Origin: a virus
Direction: 5' to 3' (one strand)
Length of the DNA: 64,000 bases
IMG/VR virus record: IMGVR_UViG_3300025732_000017
Position numbers and translations under genes: made by a program. Below, piece after piece: positions 5,201 to 63,956 of the stretch. The number at the start of each line of letters is the position of its first letter. Position 1 is the stretch's first letter. The notes under the pieces were generated by a model, which saw nothing but the letters and a program-made list of their open reading frames with translations, was not told the origin of the DNA and searched no databases.

Positions 5201-6031
5201 ACTAATATCATACTTAATAATACACCAGTATCAAGTTGGATAAAATCATCATATGATCAAGCAAATACGGCAAGAGATTTAGGAAATACATCTACTATAA
5301 ACGGTGGTGCATCATACGATCAAGCAAATACAGCAAGAACACACGCCAATGGTGCATTTGGTCAAGCCAATGTAACTGCTGCTATAGCAAATGCAGCATT
5401 TGATAAGGCCAATTTAGCGTCAACAATTGCATCTGCATCATTTGATCAAGCAAATACAGCAAGAACACATGCTAATGGTGCATTTGGTCAAGCCAATGTA
5501 ACTGCTGCTATAGCAAACGCGGCATTTGATAAGGCTAATTCTGGATCAACAATTGCATCTGCATCATACGATCAAGCAAATACAGCAAGAACACACGCCA
5601 ATGGTGCATTTGGTCAAGCCAATCTAGCATTTGATCGTGCAAATACGGCTAATCTACTTCCAGTTCAGAAGTCGGGTACTATAATTGGAACTAGAAATGC
5701 CCTAAACTTTATTGAAGGCGGAAATGTAACGTTAACGATTACTGATGATAGTATCGGCAATAGGATCAATGTTACAGTAGCAGCTGCCGGTGGTGGCGGA
5801 ACTTCTACAAATTCTGTCGTGTTTATTTCGGATACGGCACCAAGTGATGTTGCAAACGGAACACTATGGTGGAATTCAGATGATGGCTCACTATATATTA
5901 AATATCCAGATAGTAATAGCACTCAATGGGTTGTTACGTCTTCTGGTGGTGATGGTGGTGGCGGTAGCAGTGGTGGCGGTGGAGTCACTACAGGTAAAGC
6001 AATAGCAATGGCAATAGTTTTCGGAGGATAA
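2231..6031 (+). CDS. Long tail-fibre-like protein (1266 aa) with Ala/Asn coiled-coil repeats
   Basis: Many AFDQANTAR and AFGQANVTAAIANA repeats, two copies of a beta-rich SGNLTISGNTV...IDDPLIYLA domain, a NGTLWWNSDDGSLYI module, and a C-terminal TTGKAIAMAIVFGG. Confidence 0.8.
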   Translation: MALLKDGTRIFGTLNVNTEIVVSNTSILATVNSVFILANNTNTITISSFSKANSAFDIGNAAFNQANTSYNVSNSAFDKANVSTSIASAAFNAANSASGGSITDAYDQANTARNQANAAYDAANNFSAITSSSFDKANSAITVAISSYDYANTRLSANGGTIFGSLIVSGNLTISGNTVFNNVQSYRIDDPLIYLAANNYTADLVDIGFIANYVNTTGSNVHTGLMRDAGSKEYYLFQGYDQEPQNNHIDPSGNNFTIAFLNANVRSTNIILNGINVSSILISSYDQANIARSHANAAFVNSNSSGIIASASFDQANVSRTHANGAFGQANVTAAIANAAFDKANLASTIASASYDQANTASLAFNKANDSSLISSSAFNQANTARDQSNTFSIVAQAAFNQANTDLLIANLAFDKANSASVISSAAFGQANTATDNAAGSLIVAIAAFDKANLASANAGTELATAAYNQANTARLHANGAFANANSAGIIASAAFDAANAAGSSATVAAAFDKANSANIIASAAFDAANAAGSSATVAAAFDKANSANIIASNAYDKANTVNTTADSAYAQSNTARSHANGAFANANSAGIIASAAFDAANTSSTIAYASFDQANVSRSHANGAFGQANVTAAIANAAFDKSNAASTIGSAAFDQANTARNLANTSTVNGGASFDQANTARDQANAASTIGSAAFDQANTARTHANGAFGQANVTAAIANAAFDKANSGSTIASASFDQANTARDLANTSTVNGGASYDQANTARDQANTARTHANSAFDKANSGSTISSASYDQANTARTHANGAFGQANVTAAIANAAFDQANTARTQANTARTHANGAFGQANVTAAIANAAFNKANTANTIAVLAYDHANIKLNISGGIITGDLTVSGNLTISGNTVFNNVTTYRIDDPLIYLAANNYTADLVDIGFIANYVNTTGSNVHTGLMRDAGSKEYYLFFGYDKEPENNHIDPNANNFTIAFLNANVRSTNIILNNTPVSSWIKSSYDQANTARDLGNTSTINGGASYDQANTARTHANGAFGQANVTAAIANAAFDKANLASTIASASFDQANTARTHANGAFGQANVTAAIANAAFDKANSGSTIASASYDQANTARTHANGAFGQANLAFDRANTANLLPVQKSGTIIGTRNALNFIEGGNVTLTITDDSIGNRINVTVAAAGGGGTSTNSVVFISDTAPSDVANGTLWWNSDDGSLYIKYPDSNSTQWVVTSSGGDGGGGSSGGGGVTTGKAIAMAIVFGG
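2731..3040 (+). repeat. Copy 1 of a ~310-bp internal duplication (copy 2 at 4900-5209)
   Basis: Near-identical DNA starting tgtttctggtaatcttactatttctggaaatacagtattcaa; offset 2169 bp. Confidence 0.9.
3701..3888 (+). repeat. Exact 90-bp tandem duplication (two copies plus a partial third)
   Basis: attgcgtcggcagcttttgatgctgctaat... starts at 3701 and 3791; a partial copy starts at 3881. Confidence 0.95.
4900..5209 (+). repeat. Copy 2 of the ~310-bp internal duplication
   Basis: Matches 2731-3040 over long exact stretches. Confidence 0.9.
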
Positions 6032-6034
6032 TAT

Positions 6035-6394
6035 ATGGCGGCGCCAAATATAGTAAATGTAGCAACAATAAATGGTAAAACTGCGGTGGCTAATGTGTCT
6101 ACTATTGCAGCCGATATTGTAACCAATTCTGCTGCCAGTGGTAAAGTTTTCAAGATAAATTCATTGGTTGTTTCAAACATTGATGGTTCAGCAGCTGCGG
6201 ATATAACTGCAAGTGTATACAGATCTACTGTAGAATATAAACTTGCACACACAATTGCAGTACCAGCTGATGCTGCATTGGTTGTAATATCTAAAGACAC
6301 ATCAATTTATTTGGAAGAAGGTGATTCAATTAGATTAACTGCTAGTGCAAATGGTGATTTGCAAGCTGTATGTTCTTATGAGGAAATTAGCTGA
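6035..6394 (+). CDS. Small virion/fibre accessory beta protein
   Basis: 119 aa (MAAPNIVNVATINGKTA...SYEEIS), RBS GGAG, translationally coupled between the fibre and the LamG gene. Confidence 0.7.
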   Translation: MAAPNIVNVATINGKTAVANVSTIAADIVTNSAASGKVFKINSLVVSNIDGSAAADITASVYRSTVEYKLAHTIAVPADAALVVISKDTSIYLEEGDSIRLTASANGDLQAVCSYEEIS

Positions 6395-7182
6395 TGCGTA
6401 ATAACTCAGGAATTATTGGTTCAAGACAAACTCCTTCTACATCTGCTGCTTCTGGTTTTTTTTCTTTAATTGATCAACAGGTAATTCGTGGCGCAGGGCT
6501 TTGGCCGTCAGCGCCGTCACAAGATCCTGCATACAGCATTTTTTTTGATGGTACTGCCGATTGGATAGAATTTCCGGCATCAGGTGATTTTGCTAAAGAT
6601 ACTTTTTTTGGTTCGGGAAAAACATTTACTATTGAAACCTGGATCTACCCTACGTCTTTGGTTACTGCAACAAATTATGCTAGCATAGTACTTGGAGATG
6701 GAGCCCCTACCAGTTTTCAAATGTGTTGGAGTGTAGGCATGAGTGATGCCAGAAAACCACATTTTTTCTGGTATGATGGTAGTTCTAGATCTGCATCTGT
6801 TAGCACAGCACTTACTTTAAACACCTGGACACATTTGGCTTGGGTGGCATCGGCGGGTTCGGTATCTATCTACGTCAATGGAGTTAGCCAGGCTCTTACG
6901 GGAACTACATCATTAACCAATGCCAGTGAAACTATAAAAATGGAGATTGGTGTAGATCGTAGCCAAACTTGGGCCGGGTATCTATCCAATCTGCGAGCTG
7001 TCAGAGGAACTGCAATATATACCAGTAATTTTACACCACCAACTACAACTCTTCAAGCAGTAACAGGTACTTCATTACTATTAGGAACAACTAATTCGTT
7101 AACTGACGCAAGTTCACCACCAAAAACGCTTACGATTCAGGGTCAGGTTGCCATTTCAGCAAATGTTGTTCCATGGGTTTAG
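6394..7182 (+). CDS. LamG/concanavalin A-like lectin-domain protein (putative receptor binding)
   Basis: FTIETWIYP, LNTWTHLAWV, YVNGV and GYLSNLRAVRGTAIYTSNFTPPT motifs typical of LamG-like folds. Confidence 0.8.
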   Translation: MRNNSGIIGSRQTPSTSAASGFFSLIDQQVIRGAGLWPSAPSQDPAYSIFFDGTADWIEFPASGDFAKDTFFGSGKTFTIETWIYPTSLVTATNYASIVLGDGAPTSFQMCWSVGMSDARKPHFFWYDGSSRSASVSTALTLNTWTHLAWVASAGSVSIYVNGVSQALTGTTSLTNASETIKMEIGVDRSQTWAGYLSNLRAVRGTAIYTSNFTPPTTTLQAVTGTSLLLGTTNSLTDASSPPKTLTIQGQVAISANVVPWV

Positions 7183-33151: not shown

Positions 33152-34215
33152 AGATTGCCATCATCAACGATACTCATGCAGGCGCAAGAAATGACTCTCT
33201 TGCGTTTGATGATTATTTTTTTCGTTTTTGGGATAATGTTTTCTTTCCATACTTGAAAGAGAATAATATCACCACTGTGTTTCATCTTGGCGATATCGTT
33301 GATCGGCGCAAGTTCATCAATTATGTGATTCTCAATCGCTGGAGAAACAAGTTCTTTGGTCGCATGAAAGACATGGATCTCAAGCTGCATGTCTTGGTGG
33401 GAAATCACGATGTGCCATACAAGAACACGAACGACATCAATGCGATTGAAGAATTGTTTGAACAGAATGAATACATTCAAGTTTATAAAGAACCGCGCGA
33501 CATAGTTGTCGATGGTGTTGAGATTTGTTTATTGCCATGGATCAATGTCGAGAATCATCAGAGAACAGTTGAGCATATCAAGTCCAGTAGAGCACAGATA
33601 GCATTTGGGCATCTGGAGATTGCTGGATTTGAAATGGATCGTGGTAATATTTGCCATGATGGCATGAGTCGTTCCGTGTTCGACAAGTTTGAAACTGTAT
33701 TGTCTGGTCATTTTCATCACAAGTCATCAGATGGTCATATCACATATCTCGGAAATCAATATCAAATGACATGGGCAGACTATGGTGACAAGCGTGGCTT
33801 TCATGTGTTTGATACAAACACCAGAGAGTTGTCATTTGTAGAAAATCCATATCAGATGTTCTACAAGATATCATATGACGACAAGAGTGATTTGGACTTT
33901 GATAAGTTGAAGACGATTGATTTTTCACAATATTCTGGAACATATGTGAAAGTATTGGTGCTAAACAAGACCAATCCATTTCTATTTGAGAGATTCATGC
34001 AGAAGTTGACTGATGCTGCACCATTGGACATAAGCATCGTGGAAGACTTTTCCGAATTGACAAATGGTGCTGATGACGATATAATAAATGAAGGTGAAGA
34101 TACGATGACCATACTAGACAAGTATGTAGACGGTCTTCAAATGGAATCATCGGACAAACTCAAGTCTATTCTTAGAGAGTTGTATCTTGAAGCGGTAAAT
34201 TTGGAAAAAGTATGA
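33148..34215 (+). CDS. gp47: Recombination nuclease subunit (Mre11/SbcD-like)
   Basis: DTHAG, HLGDIVDRR, VGNHD and SGHFH metallophosphoesterase motifs. Confidence 0.95.
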   Translation: MKIAIINDTHAGARNDSLAFDDYFFRFWDNVFFPYLKENNITTVFHLGDIVDRRKFINYVILNRWRNKFFGRMKDMDLKLHVLVGNHDVPYKNTNDINAIEELFEQNEYIQVYKEPRDIVVDGVEICLLPWINVENHQRTVEHIKSSRAQIAFGHLEIAGFEMDRGNICHDGMSRSVFDKFETVLSGHFHHKSSDGHITYLGNQYQMTWADYGDKRGFHVFDTNTRELSFVENPYQMFYKISYDDKSDLDFDKLKTIDFSQYSGTYVKVLVLNKTNPFLFERFMQKLTDAAPLDISIVEDFSELTNGADDDIINEGEDTMTILDKYVDGLQMESSDKLKSILRELYLEAVNLEKV

Positions 34216-36857: not shown

Positions 36858-37050
36858 TTGGAGATACTGGGAGAAGCATGACATGAAAGATAGTGAGTTT
36901 CTTTTTTGGTTGAGAGATAGACTCATCAATGTCTACGGTGAAGATCCACATATCGACTATGTTCAAAAACTATATTCCATAGCCAGAAAAGTGGAAGATG
37001 ATGAGAACTATTGGAATAGAGTAATAGATAGTTCTAGACAAACAGACTAA
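36844..37050 (+). CDS. Hypothetical protein
   Basis: 68-aa aromatic-rich ORF overlapping def. Confidence 0.55.
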   Translation: MLESDWRYWEKHDMKDSEFLFWLRDRLINVYGEDPHIDYVQKLYSIARKVEDDENYWNRVIDSSRQTD

Positions 37051-37084
37051 ATCATGTTATGATTGTTTTTTATCATAGGATATC

Positions 37085-38320
37085 GTGATGTACCAAAAAT
37101 ATACCGTTGATGATGTAAAGAAGTCTTCCGCTCGTAAATTGTTCAATGTGATTTCCACGTTTGCTGGCGGCGGTGGCTCTTCTACTGGATATCGTCTTGC
37201 TGGTGGTAATATCATCGCAATCAATGAATTCGTTGAAGAAGCAATCAAGACATACTCAACGAACTTTCCTGACACCAAGATCATACCCGGCGACATCAAG
37301 AAATTGACTGCAAAAGACTTTCTTGATACAGCTGGACTCAAGCCTGGCGAACTTGATATTCTTGATGGATCTCCACCGTGTTCAGCATTCTCTGTTGCAG
37401 GTAAGCGCGAGAAGGGTTGGGCTGGACATGTCACAGATACACGCAAGTCATACTTTGACGATGATGGTAATATCATTGAAGAAGGCGAACTTCTTGTTCA
37501 AGAAGGTATCAAGAAGTACTCTGATGGCAAGACCGTAGAAGCCATTGAAGATCTATTTTTGGAATTCATTCGTATCGCAAAAGAGATCAAGCCAAAGGTA
37601 ATCGTTGCCGAGAACGTCAAAGGCATCACGTTTGGTGAAGCCAAAAGCAAACTATATGAGTTTGTCAATTCGTTTGAAAAGATTGGATATCAAGTTACAT
37701 ATCAGGTATTGAATGCAGCAGATTTTGGTGTGCCACAAGCAAGAGAGCGTACTCTATTTGTCTGCATACGCGAAGATGTATGTGATGCAATTGGCTTGAA
37801 CTTCCTCAATATTCACTCTACTGTTTTTCCTAATGCAACATATGCAAAGCACATATCTTTGCGCGAGGCAATTGAAGACATAGAGAATGATCCGAACGAA
37901 TTGCAGGAACTCTATGACTATGTGCAAAATGGCTTTCAAAAAGATTGGATCACGAAACTACCTTTCAATCCAACAAGACATACAAAGCCATCGGACAAGG
38001 AATTTCGCGATTGGAATCCCAAGGCATCATGCTTCAACATGATTCGCCCATGTCCAGATCTTCCGTCTCCAACTTTGACTCAGCGCGGACAACAGAAGTC
38101 CGTATCTGGCGTGTTTCACTATGCCGAGAATAGAAAGTTCACGATCAAGGAATTGAAGCGTATCATGAGTCTACCCGAAGACTTTGTTCTTACAGGCACG
38201 TTTGATCAACAGGCTGAGAGAATTGGACGCATGGTTGCACCAAAGATGATGGCTGCTCTTGCAGGTAGCATCTATGAAAATGTTTTGAAGCCATATAATG
38301 ATAGCCAAGTTACTAAGTGA
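37085..38320 (+). CDS. C5-cytosine DNA methyltransferase homologue, probable carboxymethyltransferase (likely ATG at 37088)
   Basis: Motif I FAGGGG, motif IV GSPPC, motif VI ENV, motif VIII QARER. Motif X reads GRMV instead of GNAV/GNSV. Confidence 0.88.
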   Translation: MMYQKYTVDDVKKSSARKLFNVISTFAGGGGSSTGYRLAGGNIIAINEFVEEAIKTYSTNFPDTKIIPGDIKKLTAKDFLDTAGLKPGELDILDGSPPCSAFSVAGKREKGWAGHVTDTRKSYFDDDGNIIEEGELLVQEGIKKYSDGKTVEAIEDLFLEFIRIAKEIKPKVIVAENVKGITFGEAKSKLYEFVNSFEKIGYQVTYQVLNAADFGVPQARERTLFVCIREDVCDAIGLNFLNIHSTVFPNATYAKHISLREAIEDIENDPNELQELYDYVQNGFQKDWITKLPFNPTRHTKPSDKEFRDWNPKASCFNMIRPCPDLPSPTLTQRGQQKSVSGVFHYAENRKFTIKELKRIMSLPEDFVLTGTFDQQAERIGRMVAPKMMAALAGSIYENVLKPYNDSQVTK

Positions 38321-39089
38321 AGAAATAGAAAAAGCATCAAACGATATCAACGTCGCTGTACTTTTGTCTGGCGGCGTTGATAGCATTTCTGTGGCATTAG
38401 CAGCACATCGTGTTGGTAAGAAGATTACTGCATACACGTTTCATCTAAAAGACCAGCCGACATATGATGCAAGTAAAGCACAAGAAATAAGTAAGATCAT
38501 GGGTTGGTCGTGCAAGACGATTGAAATTCCTGTTGACAATGTTATACGGGATTTCATTCGCCTTCGTCGTGAAGTAGATTGTCAGAAGAAGACACACTAT
38601 GAATGCTGCTTTCCTTTTCTATATGTCTATCCGCAAATAGAAGAGAAAGAAGTGCTTAGTGGATGGGCTGCCGATGGTTACTATGGCGTATCCAAGAAAG
38701 CCAATCTACACTACAAGCATACGATGGAAAAGTTCAACGAATTTCGTGAAGATTATTTTCTGCTTGATCACTGTGCTGGCTATCTTTGGCACAAGAGGAT
38801 TGCTGATATGCACAACAAGATCTTTATCACACCATATCTAACCGAGCCAGTAAAACAGTTTTTTTGGACCAAAGACTGGTATGAATTGAATCAGCCATTT
38901 CAGAAACACCATGTAGTAGAAGCATTTGATGAATTTTCTAGATTTGGTGCCGTAAAGAAACACATCAATCTGCAATTGGGCTCAGGTGTTGACAAACTGT
39001 TTGAATCTGTTATAATACCTGACAAGACGATCAACTATCGTAATAGAAAACGCATCATGGATATTTGCAAGGATTGGAGAAATAGATGA
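38298..39089 (+). CDS. Asparagine-synthetase-like PP-loop ATP-dependent ligase without a glutaminase domain
   Basis: VLLSGGVDS PP-loop, VLSGWAADGYYG (compare SGEGADE) and FITPYL motifs; only 263 aa. Confidence 0.75.
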   Translation: MIAKLLSEEIEKASNDINVAVLLSGGVDSISVALAAHRVGKKITAYTFHLKDQPTYDASKAQEISKIMGWSCKTIEIPVDNVIRDFIRLRREVDCQKKTHYECCFPFLYVYPQIEEKEVLSGWAADGYYGVSKKANLHYKHTMEKFNEFREDYFLLDHCAGYLWHKRIADMHNKIFITPYLTEPVKQFFWTKDWYELNQPFQKHHVVEAFDEFSRFGAVKKHINLQLGSGVDKLFESVIIPDKTINYRNRKRIMDICKDWRNR

Positions 39090-39772
39090 CACAAAAATTT
39101 ACATTTGCCCAGCGCGAAGAGGGTTTTGACAATCACATTAGCCAGTCCATTCGCGGATACAACGACTTGATTGGTGATGTCATCAATCTCTCGCAGTATT
39201 TTGTAGAGAACGATACTGTCGTCTATGATATCGGCTGTTCAACTGGCAAGATGCTTCGTGCAATGATTGGTCAGAACGAGAAAATTGCACCTCGTGCCAA
39301 TTATGTAGGAATTGAGATTGAAGAAGATTTCTTCAAGTTCTTTGATGAGAATGTTCAGAGTAATTTGGAGTTCATTCGGAATGATGTGCGTGATGTAAGT
39401 TTTGCTGTCAATACATCTTTGATCACTTCTATTTTCACTCTTCAGTTCATGCCCAGACAAGATCGTCAGGATGTCATCAATCAAATCTATAACTGTTTGA
39501 TTCCCGGTGGGGCGTTCATCTTTGCCGAGAAGACGATTGGCAACAATCCGATGATTCATGAGATGCGTACATTCACCTACTATGATTTCAAGAAACTCAG
39601 TTTCACCTATGACGATATCATGACGAAGGAAAAGAAACTGCGTTCCATGTTGAAGTCCAATAGTCGTCAGGAATTGATTGAAATGTGTGAGATTGCTGGA
39701 TTCAATCCCAATTCAATTGATTCGTTCTGGCAAAACTTTGCGTTTACTGGATTCATTGCAATCAAGAACTGA
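39086..39772 (+). CDS. cmoA: CmoA-like carboxy-SAM synthase / class I SAM enzyme
   Basis: Collinear with E. coli CmoA as I recall its sequence: FTF..REEGFDNHISQSIRGY, VYDIGCSTG, IFTLQFM, LIPGGAFIFAEK, YDFKK, AGF...FWQNFAF.GFIAIK. Confidence 0.8.
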   Translation: MTQKFTFAQREEGFDNHISQSIRGYNDLIGDVINLSQYFVENDTVVYDIGCSTGKMLRAMIGQNEKIAPRANYVGIEIEEDFFKFFDENVQSNLEFIRNDVRDVSFAVNTSLITSIFTLQFMPRQDRQDVINQIYNCLIPGGAFIFAEKTIGNNPMIHEMRTFTYYDFKKLSFTYDDIMTKEKKLRSMLKSNSRQELIEMCEIAGFNPNSIDSFWQNFAFTGFIAIKN

Positions 39773-39840
39773 TTGGGAATTCCAATATACATATGTGGTA
39801 GATGCATAGCTGCTATGCATTGGGAAAACAAAGATTGTCC

Positions 39841-39875: not shown

Positions 39876-42134
39876 ATGATCGAGAAAAAGACACCCACCA
39901 TTCACCGGGAAGCCAAGTCACAGCTTGCGCGTCTCATGGCCAACGAGAACCTCACGGTCGAGCATCGTGCAGTTCGTACAGCGTCCTTCGACACGAATAA
40001 TCGTGTTCTGACGCTTCCAATCTGGACTGACATGACTGGCGATATCTATGATACGCTGGTTGGTCACGAGGTTGGACATGCGCTGGATACTCCAGCGGGT
40101 GTCGATGCCATTCTTTCCGCAATCAAGGCGATTGACGCCAACAACATGCATGGCGCCAAGATGTTCCTCAATGTGGTTGAGGATGCTCGCATTGAAAAGA
40201 TGGTGCGTCGTCGTTATCCTGGTATGCGTCGTTCCTTCTCTCTCGGCTACAAGCAGCTGTTGGATCGGAACTTCTTTGGCACGATTGGTCGTGACCTGAA
40301 GACGTACAAGCTGATTGACCGCGTCAATCTGTACTTCAAGCTGGGTTCGGCTGCGATCATTGACTTCTCTCCCAAGGAGATGGAGTTGGTTCGCATGGTT
40401 GACAACAGCGAATCCTTTGAGGACGTTGTCGCCGCAGCCAAGGCGCTCTATCAATATGCCAAGGATCATAAGGAAGACCAGCCTGATCAGGACGGCGATC
40501 AGGACGAAGACTATGACATGTATCCGGATGACGACGGAAACTATTACATGGAGAGCGAGTCTTCTGACGAAAATGACGAGGAGGATGAGTCTGACGACGA
40601 GACTGGTTCTCCTTCCGATCGGGACGATGAGGACGACGAGTCCATGTCCAAGTCCGAGGCTGAAGATGGTGAGGATGGGTCCGATGATGAGGACTCAGAT
40701 TCTGAGGATGCCTCTGACTCTGAGGATGAGCCGATTGATGATGTAGGCACTTCGGAAAACAATCCGACTTCCGAGACTCAGGAGTCTTGGGAAAACCAGA
40801 AGGACAAGCTGCTCTCTGGTGCGGTTCGCGGTTACCTTTACTGCAACATTCCCGAGATTGATGGTCATAATTGGATTGTGCCTTACAAGCAGATCCATTA
40901 TGGAAATGGTAAGACTGGCGAGGGGCGCATCGACGGCCTGTCTACGGTTGTTCAAGCGGAAGGCTGGAATGGTCTTCGTGGTCCGAACGAGGCCGAGCGT
41001 TTTGCCATGCTCAACAAGTTCAAGAGCGAAAATGCACCCATCATTTCCTTCATGGTGAAGGAGTTTGAAATGCGTAAGGCTGCTGAGCAGTATGCTCGTC
41101 AGTCTATCGCCAAGACTGGCGTGATCAACACCAACAAACTCCATACCTACAAGTACAATGACGATATCTTCCGTCGCATCACCAATGTGCCGACTGGCAA
41201 GAATCATGGTCTTGTTCTTATTCTGGATTGGTCTGGTTCCATGGGTCAGCAGATTACGGGCACCATTGAGCAGCTTCTGAACATGGCACTCTTCTGCCGT
41301 CGTGTCCAGATTCCGTTTGAGGTGTTTGCATTCAGCGATGGTTATCACCCGCATCCTGAAGGGGCAAGTAATTTCAAGTATGATAATGGCGATATGATGA
41401 TCACCTATGGACTCTCGCTTCTTCAGCTTCTGTCCTCTACCATGAAGCCGAAGGAACTCAATGATGCCATGGGCAATCTTCTCGCTCTTGGAGAAAACTT
41501 CAGGCCGGGTAATCGCAATACTCGTCCCATGGGGTACTTCCATCTCAATGGAACTCCGCTTGATGGTGCGTTGCTTTGCCTTCCGAGCATCGTGAATGCT
41601 TTCCGCAAGCGTAACAAGCTGCAGATCGTCAATACGATCATCCTTACCGATGGTGAGAATTCCTATAGTCCCGAGATCAATGACAAGGAATATGCCCGTT
41701 GGGGTAATAAGGTTCTTGTGGTTCGCGACAAGGTGACCAAGGCTGAGTATACCTGTTCTATGCATGGTGGTGAAGAACTTACCAAGATTCTCCTCAAGAA
41801 CCTTGAGGATCGTACCAATGCAAACGTCATTGGTTACTATCTGGTCAGTGGATCTTCTCGTACCCTGAGGCAGGCTATTAGTCCGTATTTTCCTGACGAT
41901 ATTGAGAATGCGTTCAATAAGTTCAATGAAAAGAGGTACGTGGAGATCACCAGTAGGGGTTACACCTACTACTATGTGATCAAGGGTAACAATCTTCAGA
42001 TTGAAACTGAGGAGCTGGATATCGGTCGTGCAACTTCTGCCAAGGCTATTGCCAAGGCATTTGGAAAGTACTCCAAGAACAAGTTGGACAATCGTGTCAT
42101 GCTTTCCAGGTTCATTGAAAAGATTTCGGCTTGA
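39876..42134 (+). CDS. vWA/MIDAS-domain protein with an N-terminal HExxH metallopeptidase-like domain and acidic linker (CobT-like)
   Basis: HEVGH motif, NVVEDARIE, a long D/E tract, MIDAS LDWSGSM, GTPL and ILTDGE. Confidence 0.85.
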   Translation: MIEKKTPTIHREAKSQLARLMANENLTVEHRAVRTASFDTNNRVLTLPIWTDMTGDIYDTLVGHEVGHALDTPAGVDAILSAIKAIDANNMHGAKMFLNVVEDARIEKMVRRRYPGMRRSFSLGYKQLLDRNFFGTIGRDLKTYKLIDRVNLYFKLGSAAIIDFSPKEMELVRMVDNSESFEDVVAAAKALYQYAKDHKEDQPDQDGDQDEDYDMYPDDDGNYYMESESSDENDEEDESDDETGSPSDRDDEDDESMSKSEAEDGEDGSDDEDSDSEDASDSEDEPIDDVGTSENNPTSETQESWENQKDKLLSGAVRGYLYCNIPEIDGHNWIVPYKQIHYGNGKTGEGRIDGLSTVVQAEGWNGLRGPNEAERFAMLNKFKSENAPIISFMVKEFEMRKAAEQYARQSIAKTGVINTNKLHTYKYNDDIFRRITNVPTGKNHGLVLILDWSGSMGQQITGTIEQLLNMALFCRRVQIPFEVFAFSDGYHPHPEGASNFKYDNGDMMITYGLSLLQLLSSTMKPKELNDAMGNLLALGENFRPGNRNTRPMGYFHLNGTPLDGALLCLPSIVNAFRKRNKLQIVNTIILTDGENSYSPEINDKEYARWGNKVLVVRDKVTKAEYTCSMHGGEELTKILLKNLEDRTNANVIGYYLVSGSSRTLRQAISPYFPDDIENAFNKFNEKRYVEITSRGYTYYYVIKGNNLQIETEELDIGRATSAKAIAKAFGKYSKNKLDNRVMLSRFIEKISA

Positions 42135-42159
42135 CATTCCCAATCTTGTATTGTATTCT
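42131..42159 (+). promoter_or_regulatory. sigma70-type promoter TTGACA-17-TATTCT
   Basis: Upstream of the AAA ATPase gene. Confidence 0.75.
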
Positions 42160-42184
42160 TAGATCATAACCTGAGAGGAAATAA

Positions 42185-43396
42185 ATGTCTCTGACCAACA
42201 AGCAGATTGCCTTCATCAAGCTGGCAAACGCAAACGGTTTTACCAGCACGATTTCCCGCAAGGACGCAAAGGCGCTTTGCAAGGCTAATGACTTCAAGTG
42301 GCCGCGATGGATTGCGATTGACGACCAGTATCGTCACGCTCGCGGCGTCTATAGGCTTCCCAAGATTGATAGTGAGGTAAGTGTGCCTAAGGTTTCTCGG
42401 ATTGATACGCCCGTGCAGCAGGCTCCTGCACCGACCATGAATCTTCAGGTTCTTGGTACGAATGTGGCGGAATCGCTCATTCCAATGCCCAATCGCAAGT
42501 ATGTGCCATTTGGCAACTTTGCCGATGTTGAGGCTATCATTTCTTCCACTCTATTCTATCCGATCTATGTCACGGGTCTGTCTGGCAACGGCAAGACCAT
42601 GATGATTGAGCAGGTCTGTGCCAAGGCTCGGCGCGAGATGGTTCGCGTCAATATCACGGCCGAGACTGACGAAGACGATCTTATCGGCGGCTTCCGTCTG
42701 ATTGATGGTCAGACCGTGTGGCATAATGGTCCTGTGGTCATGGCCATGGAGCGTGGTGCTGTACTGCTCCTGGACGAGGTTGACCTTGGTTCAATTAAGC
42801 TGATGTGCCTTCAGCCCGTGCTTGAGGGTAAGCCGATCTTCATCAAAAAGATCAACAAGCTGGTTCAGCCTGCCAAGGGCTTCACGGTTGTTGCTACTGC
42901 AAACACCAAGGGTAAGGGTTCAGACGATGGTCGCTTCATTGGCACCAACGTGATGAACGAGGCTTTCCTTGAGCGTTTTTCCATCACCCTTGAGCAGGAG
43001 TATCCGCCTGCTGTAACCGAGAAGAAGATCCTTCTCAACATCCTGGATCGCTCTGCGGACAATGACAAGGAGTTTGCCGAGCTGCTTATCAAGTGGGCAG
43101 AGGCAATTCGCCGCACCTATTATGATGGTGGTGTGACCGAGATCATTTCCACTCGTCGTTTGGTGCATATCTGCGAGGCGTATAACATCTTCTCCAAGGA
43201 TCGCAAGAAGGCGATTCAGCTCTGTCTCAATCGGTTTGATGCGGACACCAAGAATTCGTTCATGGATCTGTATACCAAGATTGATGCTGAGGTCAATCCT
43301 CCTGTGGTTGCTGCGCCTGGCACCGACAGCCCGACTGTTCAGGCTGAGATGTCGCTTGAGGACAAGATCAAGGCGGCTGACGAAATTCCCTTCTGA
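42185..43396 (+). CDS. MoxR/CobS-like AAA+ ATPase
   Basis: GLSGNGKT, DLIGG, LLLDEVD, ATANTKG and NEAFLERF motifs; adjacent to the vWA gene. Confidence 0.9.
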   Translation: MSLTNKQIAFIKLANANGFTSTISRKDAKALCKANDFKWPRWIAIDDQYRHARGVYRLPKIDSEVSVPKVSRIDTPVQQAPAPTMNLQVLGTNVAESLIPMPNRKYVPFGNFADVEAIISSTLFYPIYVTGLSGNGKTMMIEQVCAKARREMVRVNITAETDEDDLIGGFRLIDGQTVWHNGPVVMAMERGAVLLLDEVDLGSIKLMCLQPVLEGKPIFIKKINKLVQPAKGFTVVATANTKGKGSDDGRFIGTNVMNEAFLERFSITLEQEYPPAVTEKKILLNILDRSADNDKEFAELLIKWAEAIRRTYYDGGVTEIISTRRLVHICEAYNIFSKDRKKAIQLCLNRFDADTKNSFMDLYTKIDAEVNPPVVAAPGTDSPTVQAEMSLEDKIKAADEIPF

Positions 43397-43403
43397 AAAT
43401 ACT

Positions 43404-43432
43404 TGACATTCCATTTCAACATTGATATAATG
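43404..43432 (+). promoter_or_regulatory. Perfect sigma70 consensus promoter TTGACA-17-TATAAT
   Basis: Exact -35 and -10 hexamers with a 17-bp spacer. Confidence 0.9.
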
Positions 43433-46737: not shown

Positions 46738-47679
46738 ATGTCTAATAATGATCAATTCTTGTGGACCGAGAAGTATCGCCCACAGAAAGTTGCAGATTGC
46801 ATTCTACCAGAAAGCATCAAGAGTGCATTTCAGGAATATGTAAATCAAAAAAACATTCCAAATCTTCTTTTGACAGGTGGTCCTGGCGTTGGTAAGACGA
46901 CTATCGCCAAGGCCATGTGCAATGAAGTTGGTTGTGACTTCATGGTCATCAATGGTTCGGATGAACGAGGCATTGATGTTCTTCGTACCAAGATCAAGAC
47001 GTATGCATCTTCCATGAGTTTTTCTGGCGGCAGAAAAGTCGTCATCATTGATGAAGCGGACTATCTAACGCCAGAAGCACAAGCAGCCATGCGAGCTGCT
47101 ATTGAAGAGTTTGCATCCAATTGTTCTTTCATCTTTACCTGCAATTACAAGGCTCGCTTGATTGAAGCCATTCATTCACGTTGTTCCGTGATTGAGTTCA
47201 AGATCAAGAATGGCAACAAGGTGAAGATGGCGGCTGGCTTTCTAAAAAGAATTCAGAGTATTCTTGATCAGGAAAAGATCAAGTATGACAATGGTGCTCT
47301 TGTTCAGATCATTCAAAAGCACTTTCCAGACTATCGTCGCGTATTGAATGAGTTGCAGAGATATGCCGTTCGTGGCGAGATTGACTCTGGCGTACTTGCA
47401 CAAGTTGGTGATGTCAACCTCAAGGAACTTGTTGGTTTCTTGAAGGAGAAAGACTTCACGGCTATGCGTAAGTGGGTTGCGACAAACTCTGATGCTGATC
47501 AAAACAAGATCTTCCGTCAGATCTATGATGCGATGTATGATACCATGCAGCCACAGTCTATTCCACAGGCTGTGATCGTGTTGGCTGATTATCAATACAA
47601 GTCGGCGTTTGTTGCTGATCAAGAAATCAACATGGTTGCATGTTTGACAACCATCATGATGGAGTGTTCGTTTAAATAA
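46738..47679 (+). CDS. gp44: Clamp loader large subunit
   Basis: LWTEKYRP, GGPGVGKTT, IIDEAD, IHSRC and FPDYRR motifs. Confidence 0.96.
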   Translation: MSNNDQFLWTEKYRPQKVADCILPESIKSAFQEYVNQKNIPNLLLTGGPGVGKTTIAKAMCNEVGCDFMVINGSDERGIDVLRTKIKTYASSMSFSGGRKVVIIDEADYLTPEAQAAMRAAIEEFASNCSFIFTCNYKARLIEAIHSRCSVIEFKIKNGNKVKMAAGFLKRIQSILDQEKIKYDNGALVQIIQKHFPDYRRVLNELQRYAVRGEIDSGVLAQVGDVNLKELVGFLKEKDFTAMRKWVATNSDADQNKIFRQIYDAMYDTMQPQSIPQAVIVLADYQYKSAFVADQEINMVACLTTIMMECSFK

Positions 47680-48254
47680 TGCTAAATCCTAGACAGCTTA
47701 AAGTATTAAAGTCGTTTAATTGGAATAATATATTTTCCGATGCTCTTGCATGTGATGCCTTAAACGAGGCTCAAAATAGATTTTTGAAAGGTAGAATCAT
47801 AGAGAAATCGATTGAATGGAATAGTAATGGTCATTTGACATACATTGGTGATAAGCATAAGGATTTTGATTGGGTCGAAGAGAAATTTGAAGTTGAAATG
47901 AAAAGTGTAACATCTTATAGGATTTATGGTAAAAAAGGTCAGATAAAAGGAAAATTTGAAATACTACTTAGCAGTGTGATGGGCAATAAGAAACAGACAC
48001 CTATTGAATCCGAAATATGCGATCTTATATTGATACTTTATCGTGATGGTGCATTTGTTCTTGAGAAAGAAAATGTACTTAAAAACATACAATCTTATGA
48101 GGATGGATTACGAGTTAGAGGACATACGTCATGCTTGATTCCATTGACTGGATTAATTCAAGAGAAAAATATTGTAAAGAATCCAAAGTTTTTGAATTTT
48201 CCTATTCACTTGAATAAATTGATAGAGAGTGCTATAAAAGATTCATATGCTTGA
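47679..48254 (+). CDS. Putative PD-(D/E)xK nuclease inserted between gp44 and gp62
   Basis: GRIIEKSIE...KDFD...EVEMKS pattern; AT-rich. Confidence 0.45.
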   Translation: MLNPRQLKVLKSFNWNNIFSDALACDALNEAQNRFLKGRIIEKSIEWNSNGHLTYIGDKHKDFDWVEEKFEVEMKSVTSYRIYGKKGQIKGKFEILLSSVMGNKKQTPIESEICDLILILYRDGAFVLEKENVLKNIQSYEDGLRVRGHTSCLIPLTGLIQEKNIVKNPKFLNFPIHLNKLIESAIKDSYA

Positions 48255-49072: not shown

Positions 49073-49618
49073 ATGGCAACAAAATTGAAGTACTACAAGA
49101 TACATCCGCAAGTACAAGCACCAGTCTATTCAACGACTGATGCTGCTTGTTTTGATATCTTTCTATGTACATTTGGTGTAATGTCGTTTGAAGGATATGA
49201 TGATACGGGAAAGAAGTTTAGTCGGCTATTAACAAGCGATGGTGGTGTAACGATATGTCCAAGAGATCGTGTGCTTGCACCCACTGGATTGATCTTTGAT
49301 ATTCCAAAAGAATACTCAGTACGCATTCATCCTCGCTCGGGTCTTTCCTTGAAAGAGGGTCTAACGCTTGCAAATGCTGAAGGTGTAATTGATTCTGATT
49401 ATATGGAAGAAACTTTCGTCATGTTGACAAACATTACAACTAGAAACATAGTTGTACCCAATCTATCTAGAATTTGTCAAGGTGAACTTGTACGCAATAA
49501 TAGAGCAGCATTTGAAGAAGTAAAGGCAAGACCAACACGCGATAACACAAATCGTAAGGGCGGATTTGGTTCTACAGGCACAAAGGTACTTGACAATCCT
49601 ACTGCGAATACTATATAA
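49073..49618 (+). CDS. dut: Trimeric dUTPase
   Basis: ACFDI, PRSGLS, GVIDSDY, QGE and RKGGFGSTG motifs. Confidence 0.93.
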   Translation: MATKLKYYKIHPQVQAPVYSTTDAACFDIFLCTFGVMSFEGYDDTGKKFSRLLTSDGGVTICPRDRVLAPTGLIFDIPKEYSVRIHPRSGLSLKEGLTLANAEGVIDSDYMEETFVMLTNITTRNIVVPNLSRICQGELVRNNRAAFEEVKARPTRDNTNRKGGFGSTGTKVLDNPTANTI

Positions 49619-49619
49619 T
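49590..49619 (+). promoter_or_regulatory. sigma70-type promoter TTGACA-18-TATAAT
   Basis: Consensus hexamers upstream of the hsp20 leader. Confidence 0.7.
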
Positions 49620-63702: not shown

Positions 63703-63956
63703 AAAAAACTGCAATTGTAGCATCCAGTTTCTCAGAAAACGGAAGCAAAAGTCTTGCAAAATTGTTGACAAAGAAGTATGGATGCACTATAATCAAGGAA
63801 TCTACATATGATAAAGATCGTGGTATGTGGATGCTCACATACACAGATCCATTGTTGGAGATCGTAGATGAAATTCAAAGTTCTAAAAATGAACGCACTC
63901 GCAGAAGCACTAGACAAAGTAAAAATAAAAGACCCCGTCGCTCTTCCATGGAATGA
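63699..63956 (+). CDS. Hypothetical protein
   Basis: ORF coupled by ATGA; its 3' part overlaps another plausible ORF. Confidence 0.45.
   Translation: MKKTAIVASSFSENGSKSLAKLLTKKYGCTIIKESTYDKDRGMWMLTYTDPLLEIVDEIQSSKNERTRRSTRQSKNKRPRRSSME

Follow-up and report, generated by a model that had tools for sequence, protein, structure and literature searches.

The question raised by positions 37085-39772 of a 64,000-nucleotide (nt) stretch of viral DNA from the IMG/VR record IMGVR_UViG_3300025732_000017 (hereafter the window) is whether three overlapping plus-strand genes enable a phage to write a hypermodified cytosine into its own genome. A preliminary description had proposed that 5-carboxymethylcytosine (5cxmC) is made and then derivatised, and had pointed to a comparable CmoA/CmoX/amide-ligase system from a Synechococcus phage. 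Such a system has been described by Yang et al. (Nat Commun 2025;17:281, PMC12783734, December 2025), who reported on the CmoA, CmoX and CmoY of Synechococcus phage S-B43 (SpCmoA, SpCmoX and SpCmoY). In that phage, CmoA makes carboxy-S-adenosylmethionine (carboxy-SAM, Cx-SAM), CmoX writes 5cxmC at GC sites and accepts only Cx-SAM, not S-adenosylmethionine (SAM), and CmoY, which is homologous to asparagine synthetase but lacks a glutaminase domain, attaches glycine, giving 5-glycylcarboxymethylcytosine, a base found in S-B43 virion DNA (PMC12783734). The proposal for the window is supported by full-length identities to the S-B43 enzymes of 49% for CmoX (expectation value E 7e-130), 51% for CmoY (E 3e-97) and 46% for CmoA (E 8e-72), with the catalytic SPPC motif and the motif-X arginine of CmoX both kept. 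At a probability of about 0.82, the three genes would constitute a CmoA-CmoX-CmoY-type cytosine carboxymethylation and amidation cassette, the chemistry in the window phage being attributed to it by homology. With this cassette, a known type of anti-restriction DNA modification gains another example; it is not a new system, and it leaves the basic 2025 picture unchanged. Its genes are as follows.

37088..38320, plus strand: cmoX, DNA cytosine C5-carboxymethyltransferase homologue, 410 amino acids (aa) from ATG, 411 aa from the GTG at 37085
38298..39089, plus strand: cmoY, stand-alone AsnB-type ATP-dependent amide ligase, 263 aa, without a glutaminase domain
39086..39772, plus strand: cmoA, carboxy-SAM synthase homologue, 228 aa

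The three overlapping genes were thus correctly called as plus-strand open reading frames (ORFs) of 411, 263 and 228 aa. The overlaps are 23 nt between cmoX and cmoY and 4 nt (ATGA) between cmoY and cmoA, and cmoA lies 766 nt downstream of cmoX in the same coupled cluster. The frame given earlier for cmoX (37085-38320) stands, but its start is likelier to be the ATG at 37088 than the GTG at 37085, because an AGGA sequence sits 7 nt upstream of the ATG.

In the proposed pathway, CmoA (39086-39772) would convert SAM and prephenate into carboxy-SAM. CmoX (37088-38320) would then follow the normal C5-methyltransferase mechanism, in which Cys98 attacks C6 of a flipped-out cytosine, with the motif-X arginine binding the cofactor carboxylate so that a carboxymethyl group is transferred and 5cxmC arises in phage DNA. 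CmoY would, as in the S-B43 type, couple an amine to this carboxymethyl group. The likely purpose would be protection of the phage genome from host restriction. The genes are translationally coupled and are probably early genes transcribed from sigma70-type promoters, with cmoA having a perfect promoter of its own.

CmoX and its motif-X arginine

The first ORF matches PF00145 (E 6e-58) and scores 165 bits against TIGR00675, for which the cut-off is 100.65 bits, and it has the C5-cytosine methyltransferase fold with all canonical motifs. Its top match among solved structures is PDB 8YF3, SpCmoX with Cx-SAM, both by sequence (E 1e-110) and by fold, where the AlphaFold2 (AF2) model reaches a template modelling (TM) score of 0.93 normalised by target. 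By the CmoX search criteria stated in Yang et al. 2025 (PMC12783734), the window protein counts as a CmoX. At the network thresholds of that study (1e-70 for CmoX and 1e-56, or ~30% identity, for the SpCmoY cluster), the pairwise scores, from which membership was judged, would link the window CmoX and CmoY directly to SpCmoX and SpCmoY. The features of cmoX on which the argument draws are listed below.

37370..37381, plus strand: codons of the SPPC catalytic motif with the nucleophile Cys98 (ATG numbering), aligning with S95-C98 of SpCmoX
38228..38230, plus strand: motif-X arginine codon CGC, R382 in GTG numbering and R381 in ATG numbering
37421..37504, plus strand: insertion of ~19-28 residues following the catalytic loop, where SpCmoX and the S-CRM01 enzyme show a gap when aligned

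The catalytic motif stands in the sequence GSPPCS at residues 94-99, and SPPC is invariant in 69 distinct CmoX sequences; together with ENV and ERxGRMV, it is invariant in the 67-69 distinct relatives compared. It had been proposed that Arg382 occupies the motif-X position normally held by asparagine, and this is borne out by alignment: the arginine in the window sequence ERIGRMV pairs with R350 in ERVGRMV of 8YF3/SpCmoX and with the asparagine in IGNAV of M.HaeIII. It is present in 67 of the 67 distinct relatives that cover the column. In the crystal structure 8YF3, SpCmoX R350 contacts the carboxyl group of the cofactor (PMC12783734). The precedent cited for such a residue, engineered M.MpeI N374K, is also confirmed in that paper, where a basic residue in place of the motif-X asparagine lets a C5-methyltransferase use Cx-SAM (PMC12783734). 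The window CmoX shares with this variant a basic residue in place of the motif-X asparagine; it differs in that M.MpeI N374K is engineered, carries lysine instead of arginine, targets CG and works without a dedicated CmoA or ligase. The insertion after the catalytic loop is found in ~43 of 69 distinct CmoX relatives and is modelled as short beta strands with low confidence (predicted local distance difference test score, pLDDT, 46-72).

CmoY, a ligase without a glutaminase domain

The second gene had been described as an ATP ligase, which holds in the narrower form of a glutaminase-less AsnB-type enzyme consisting of the PP-loop part only. The ORF matches only this part of Asn_synthase (PF00733, E 5e-12), and its match to TIGR01536 is limited to positions 250-369 of 517; the absence of a glutaminase domain follows from the length of 263 aa and from a TIGR01536 match that runs from position 250 onward. 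The ATP-binding signature is encoded as follows.

38367..38384, plus strand: codons of the PP-loop SGGVDS (S24-S29), an ATP pyrophosphatase signature

Residues S24 and G26 are present in every relative covering these columns, and D28 and S29 are invariant in 47 distinct sequences including SpCmoY. A search of the CmoY sequence against PDB chains gave no match at E <= 0.1, and the fold search alone was informative. The AF2 model (pLDDT 91.6) fits the synthetase domains found in beta-lactam synthetase, carbapenam synthetase, human ASNS and E. coli AsnB; the TM scores to 1MC1, 1Q19, 1CT9 and 6GQ3 are 0.65-0.78 by model and 0.37-0.44 by target, the matches spanning only ~40% of the longer targets. 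CmoY thus resembles these synthetases in its PP-loop ATP pyrophosphatase fold and in its expected mechanism, formation of an acyl-adenylate followed by attack of an amine. It differs from them in lacking the N-terminal glutaminase domain, in an identity of only 13-17% and, for the S-B43 homologue, in a carboxyl substrate that is a modified base in DNA.

Gene order and selection among relatives

At least 96 related IMG/VR stretches were found, of which 80 were examined as loci, with CmoX identities of 62-95%. This number supports the published view of a widespread modification, for which 5,615 CmoX, 4,257 CmoA and 2,251 ligase candidates were collected from IMG/VR, UniProt and MGnify (PMC12783734). 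Within the 80 loci, the order Y-X-A was observed 48 times, X-Y-A 12 times (the clade of the window itself) and X-A-Y 4 times; the order is A-Y-X in S-B43 and A-X in S-CRM01. A further 11 loci have X-A without an adjoining ligase, and at least 7 of these have flanks long enough for the absence to be real within ~4 kb. The linkage of CmoX and CmoA is kept in nearly all of the 80 related loci. That the trio stays linked despite changing gene order speaks for a functional unit over merely inherited synteny.

The ratio of non-synonymous to synonymous substitution rates (dN/dS) is 0.04 for cmoX (against its closest relatives), 0.08-0.09 for cmoY and 0.04 for cmoA, and all three cassette genes are under strong purifying selection. 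These values bear on the suggestion that the cassette is a decaying remnant, no longer functional in the window phage, which could draw on the facts that the sequence is a metagenome assembly and that the RNA runs contained only small shares of the stretch. Such low ratios speak against decay, as do three intact and coupled frames, the retention of the catalytic residues and the occurrence of near-identical copies in metagenomes from several independent studies. Decay is therefore the least probable of the explanations considered here, with very little chance of being correct.

Additional genes occur inside some of the related cassettes. In locus L006, whose CmoX is 95% identical to that of the window, a 478-aa ORF (5337-6773, plus strand) lies between cmoX and cmoY. 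Weak, sub-threshold matches link it to the N-terminal (DUF262-type) domain of GmrSD and to an HNH nuclease, and it is possibly a nuclease gene, either mobile or connected with modification. Two loci with the order X-A-Y (L026:2933-4584 and L074:2200-3899, plus strand) carry two ORFs of ~367-383 aa and 184 aa between cmoA and cmoY. Neither of these gave a Pfam match, and they could be further components of the cassette.

CmoA and the weighing of the cassette reading

The third gene had been read as collinear with CmoA, and the match to the CmoA model TIGR00740 indeed covers positions 14-239 of 239, at 98 bits. The match to the E. coli CmoA (EcCmoA) structure 4GEK has an E of 1.5e-20. Compared with the E. 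coli protein (4GEK/4IWN), the window CmoA has the same fold, is collinear over its full length at ~28% identity with an hhalign probability of 99.9, and is predicted to carry out the same reaction, SAM and prephenate giving Cx-SAM.

Several observations weigh against the reading of the three genes as a carboxymethylation and amidation cassette of the S-B43 kind. The score of 98 bits for the window CmoA is below the TIGR00740 (NCBIfam) cut-off of 193 bits. The column of EcCmoA R199 holds Glu182 in the window CmoA, according to HMMER, MAFFT and hhalign profile-profile alignment. The window CmoX is in the other deep clade than SpCmoX and is 35% identical to it in the recognition region, so that the GC motif may not transfer. 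Many 6-bp palindromes, GC-containing ones included, are avoided by the phage, so that modification is clearly not its only answer to restriction. Finally, the 142-kb IMG/VR record around the window is only ~79% complete.

The first of these points loses force in that the validated SpCmoA is also under the 193-bit cut-off, at 116 bits; since an active enzyme fails it too, the TIGR00740 cut-off marks bacterial CmoA and not activity. The second concerns a residue that in EcCmoA salt-bridges the cofactor carboxylate (PMC3663124). The caveat raised in the preliminary description, that R199 is opposite a glutamate with an arginine four residues later (KEKKLR), was correct by all three alignment methods and applies equally to SpCmoA.

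39629..39643, plus strand: codons of CmoA E182-R186, a Glu/Arg pair swapped relative to R199/E203 of E. coli CmoA

The profile-profile alignment pairs EcCmoA R199 with E182 and E203 with R186, a charge swap between positions i and i+4 on one helix face. Across 56 distinct phage CmoAs, residues K181, E182, L185 and R186 do not vary, and SpCmoA carries the same KEKxLR sequence and the same Glu/Arg arrangement. SpCmoA is ~10x more active than EcCmoA (PMC12783734). As an active enzyme has this arrangement, the R199 caveat does not argue against function. From these alignments, we infer that Arg186 may replace R199 as the carboxylate ligand in phage CmoA, and the swapped pair would offer a testable explanation of how the more active phage CmoAs hold the cofactor carboxylate. 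An alternative alignment that puts Arg186 on EcCmoA R199 by way of a shared RSML sequence was rejected: MAFFT, HMMER and hhalign prefer the gapless alignment, with which the lengths of the flanking helix-loop-helix also agree.

CmoA is best known for its role in the synthesis of cmo5U in tRNA. This role, together with a family score below the cut-off and the presence of every canonical C5-methyltransferase motif in CmoX, could be taken to mean that CmoX is an ordinary SAM-dependent methyltransferase producing 5-methylcytosine, and that CmoA and CmoY are neighbours by chance, serving for instance tRNA or small-molecule modification. In a search of the ~79%-complete 142-kb record for CmoB (PF08003), no match was found, and a phage-encoded tRNA cmo5U pathway is therefore not apparent. 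In contrast to the E. coli CmoA/CmoB pathway for tRNA cmo5U34, in which the R199/E203 pair also appears swapped relative to E182/R186 of the phage enzymes, the window CmoA has no CmoB partner in the record and its cofactor would go to a DNA enzyme. Moreover, wild-type SpCmoX, which has the same arginine, was active with Cx-SAM only and not with SAM, the substrate of SpCmoY is 5cxmC in DNA (PMC12783734), the arginine is invariant in 67 relatives and the trio has remained linked through several rearrangements. An ordinary methyltransferase with chance neighbours is thus highly improbable, and the reading as a carboxymethylation and amidation cassette is retained.

Two CmoX clades and the question of target specificity

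A quick maximum-likelihood IQ-TREE run on 68 distinct CmoX sequences, which gave long-branch warnings, recovered two deep clades with an SH-like approximate likelihood-ratio test (SH-aLRT) support of 100. Clade I contains S-B43, S-CRM01 and second copies from several contigs, and clade II the window CmoX and 60 others. The division rests on this tree and on identities by domain: between the window CmoX and SpCmoX, the catalytic domain is 64% identical, against 35% for the target-recognition region. Tandem clade-II and clade-I genes are found in at least 7 contigs (L075-L078, L080, L082, L083), the second cmoX in loci of this type following ~1150 nt after the first, and SPPC and GRMV are intact in both copies. 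Diverged clade-II duplicates in tandem, with SPPC and the motif-X arginine in both copies, were also observed in three further groups (L059, L064 and L070-L072).

Co-resident paralogues usually differ in specificity. Given the tandem clade I and II copies and the low identity of the recognition region, GC specificity is not assumable for the window CmoX. The two tandem genes suggest that there may be two carboxymethylation specificities in one phage. It is possible, at somewhat less than an even chance, that the clade holding the window CmoX is a second, uncharacterised clade of natural DNA carboxymethyltransferases with a motif other than GC. If so, phages with both clades in tandem (L075-L083 type) would write carboxymethyl-derived marks at two motifs, and the CmoY linked to a clade-II CmoX might in turn couple an amine that is not glycine.

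The cassette could accordingly run the same pathway with other details, its clade-II CmoX acting in a non-GC context, its CmoY coupling an amine other than glycine, or both, in which case neither the final base nor its distribution would be as in S-B43, where 5-glycylcarboxymethylcytosine stands at GC sites. The depth of the split, the uneven identity of the two domains and the seemingly non-redundant tandem copies with intact motifs are in favour of such a variant, and Yang et al. note that specificity in other CmoX enzymes, like the amine used by other ligase clusters, is still to be determined (PMC12783734). Against it, tandem paralogues could differ in timing or in substrate form instead of motif, and the tree comes from a quick run that gave long-branch warnings. 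A variant of this kind is a serious contender that falls a little short of being probable. In either form, the cassette means that 5cxmC-derived DNA is predicted for one more lineage, of freshwater/estuarine T4-like cyanophages. As a member of a clade without a characterised representative, co-resident with the S-B43 type, the window CmoX is a sensible candidate in the search for new carboxymethylation specificities, which are of interest to DNA-labelling and sequencing chemistry.

Restriction-site statistics of the 142-kb genome were considered as a proxy for the CmoX target motif and rejected, as there was no pattern separating GC-containing sites from others. Among 4-bp palindromes, AGCT and GGCC are under-represented, but GCGC and TGCA are not; among the most avoided 6-bp palindromes, 8 of 15 contain GC, compared with 20 of 59 overall. 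Near-absent from the record are ACGCGT (0 observed, 8.3 expected), ACTAGT (0/9.3), GACGTC (0/10.1), TGCGCA (1/22.3), AAGCTT (1/12.2) and GCATGC (3/20.2), and TCGA occurs at 0.41 of expectation. Avoidance of restriction sites is thus present alongside the modification cassette.

Comparison with S-B43 and S-CRM01

The window system resembles that of S-B43 in that all three enzyme families recur in a single coupled cluster of a T4-like cyanophage, in the conserved SPPC and Cx-SAM-binding arginine, in a ligase without a glutaminase domain and in a CmoA with the phage-type KEKxLR helix. It differs in gene order (X-Y-A against A-Y-X) and genomic neighbourhood, in a CmoX that belongs to the other deep clade, diverges in its recognition region and carries the additional 19-28 residues, and in habitat, which is freshwater/estuarine as opposed to coastal marine.

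Synechococcus phage S-CRM01 (HQ615693) is likewise a freshwater T4-like cyanophage with adjacent genes for CmoA and an Arg-type CmoX. The pair is annotated only as methyltransferases in HQ615693 and is 51% and ~51-53% identical to the window proteins. It differs from the window in having no CmoY adjoining the pair and a CmoX of clade I; the expected end point in S-CRM01 would be 5cxmC, unless a ligase from another locus is used.

The two-clade split of CmoX, the CmoX insertion and the sigma70 promoters, including one inside cmoY, are new beyond PMC12783734. Within the literature library searched, no later paper on CmoX came up.

Promoters

Two promoter-like sites are associated with the cassette.

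37035..37063, plus strand: candidate sigma70-like promoter before cmoX, TAGACA-17-TATGAT with TG before the -10 element
38989..39016, plus strand: perfect sigma70 consensus promoter, TTGACA-16-TATAAT with TG, inside the 3' end of cmoY

The first has 10 of 12 consensus matches and ends 22-25 nt before the start of cmoX; promoter-like sites around it are no commoner than in shuffled sequence, and it is a consensus match only. The second lies ~70 nt upstream of the cmoA start. Perfect TTGACA-N16-18-TATAAT sites occur 5 times in the window, all on the plus (coding) strand, against an expectation of 0.16, and not one of 100 shuffles reaches this count. The promoter at 38989..39016 is kept in the four nearest relatives (L005-L008) and is degenerate in the next subclade (L009-L016), and comparable perfect promoters are embedded ahead of cmoX or cmoA in relatives whose genes are ordered differently. 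The phage lineage thus seems to employ sigma70 promoters of exact consensus that lie within coding sequence, an arrangement that would fit early transcription by the host RNA polymerase and an added boost to cofactor synthesis.

The five perfect sites are at 34057-34085, 38989-39016, 43403-43431, 49590-49619 and 63765-63793. Those at 34057, 38989 and 43403, whose neighbours were examined, each lie a short distance upstream of where a gene starts; the sites at 34057 and 38989 are inside the 3' end of the preceding gene.

Source record and neighbouring genes

The recombination genes of the record match T4-like cyanophages (Kyanoviridae) at a nucleotide identity of at most 68%, and several independent studies have yielded near-identical DNA, in metagenomes from freshwater, estuary, lagoon and aquaculture settings. 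The window phage is an uncultured freshwater T4-like cyanophage. Among the DNA methyltransferase families searched (PF00145, PF01555 and PF02086), CmoX is the sole gene found in the record; the ~79%-complete sequence gave no match to the N6/N4 methyltransferase (PF01555) or Dam-type methyltransferase (PF02086) families, nor to ParB (PF02195).

For a 191-aa ORF at 47679-48254 of the window, a Pfam search at E <= 0.01 gave nothing. The 103 nt that separate cmoA from the gene after it contain a perfect palindrome of 19 bp (9+1+9) at 39802-39820; it is not a typical intrinsic terminator, because no T-run follows it. The cassette is flanked by a peptide deformylase gene on one side and a CobT/CobS-like pair on the other. 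The two genes of this pair (39876-43396) are GC-richer, at ~49% compared with 38-41%; one encodes a protein of 752 aa that has a long, acidic stretch of low complexity and gave no Pfam match, the other a 403-aa AAA_5/CbbQ_C ATPase, and together they resemble the CobT/CobS-like pair common in cyanophages.

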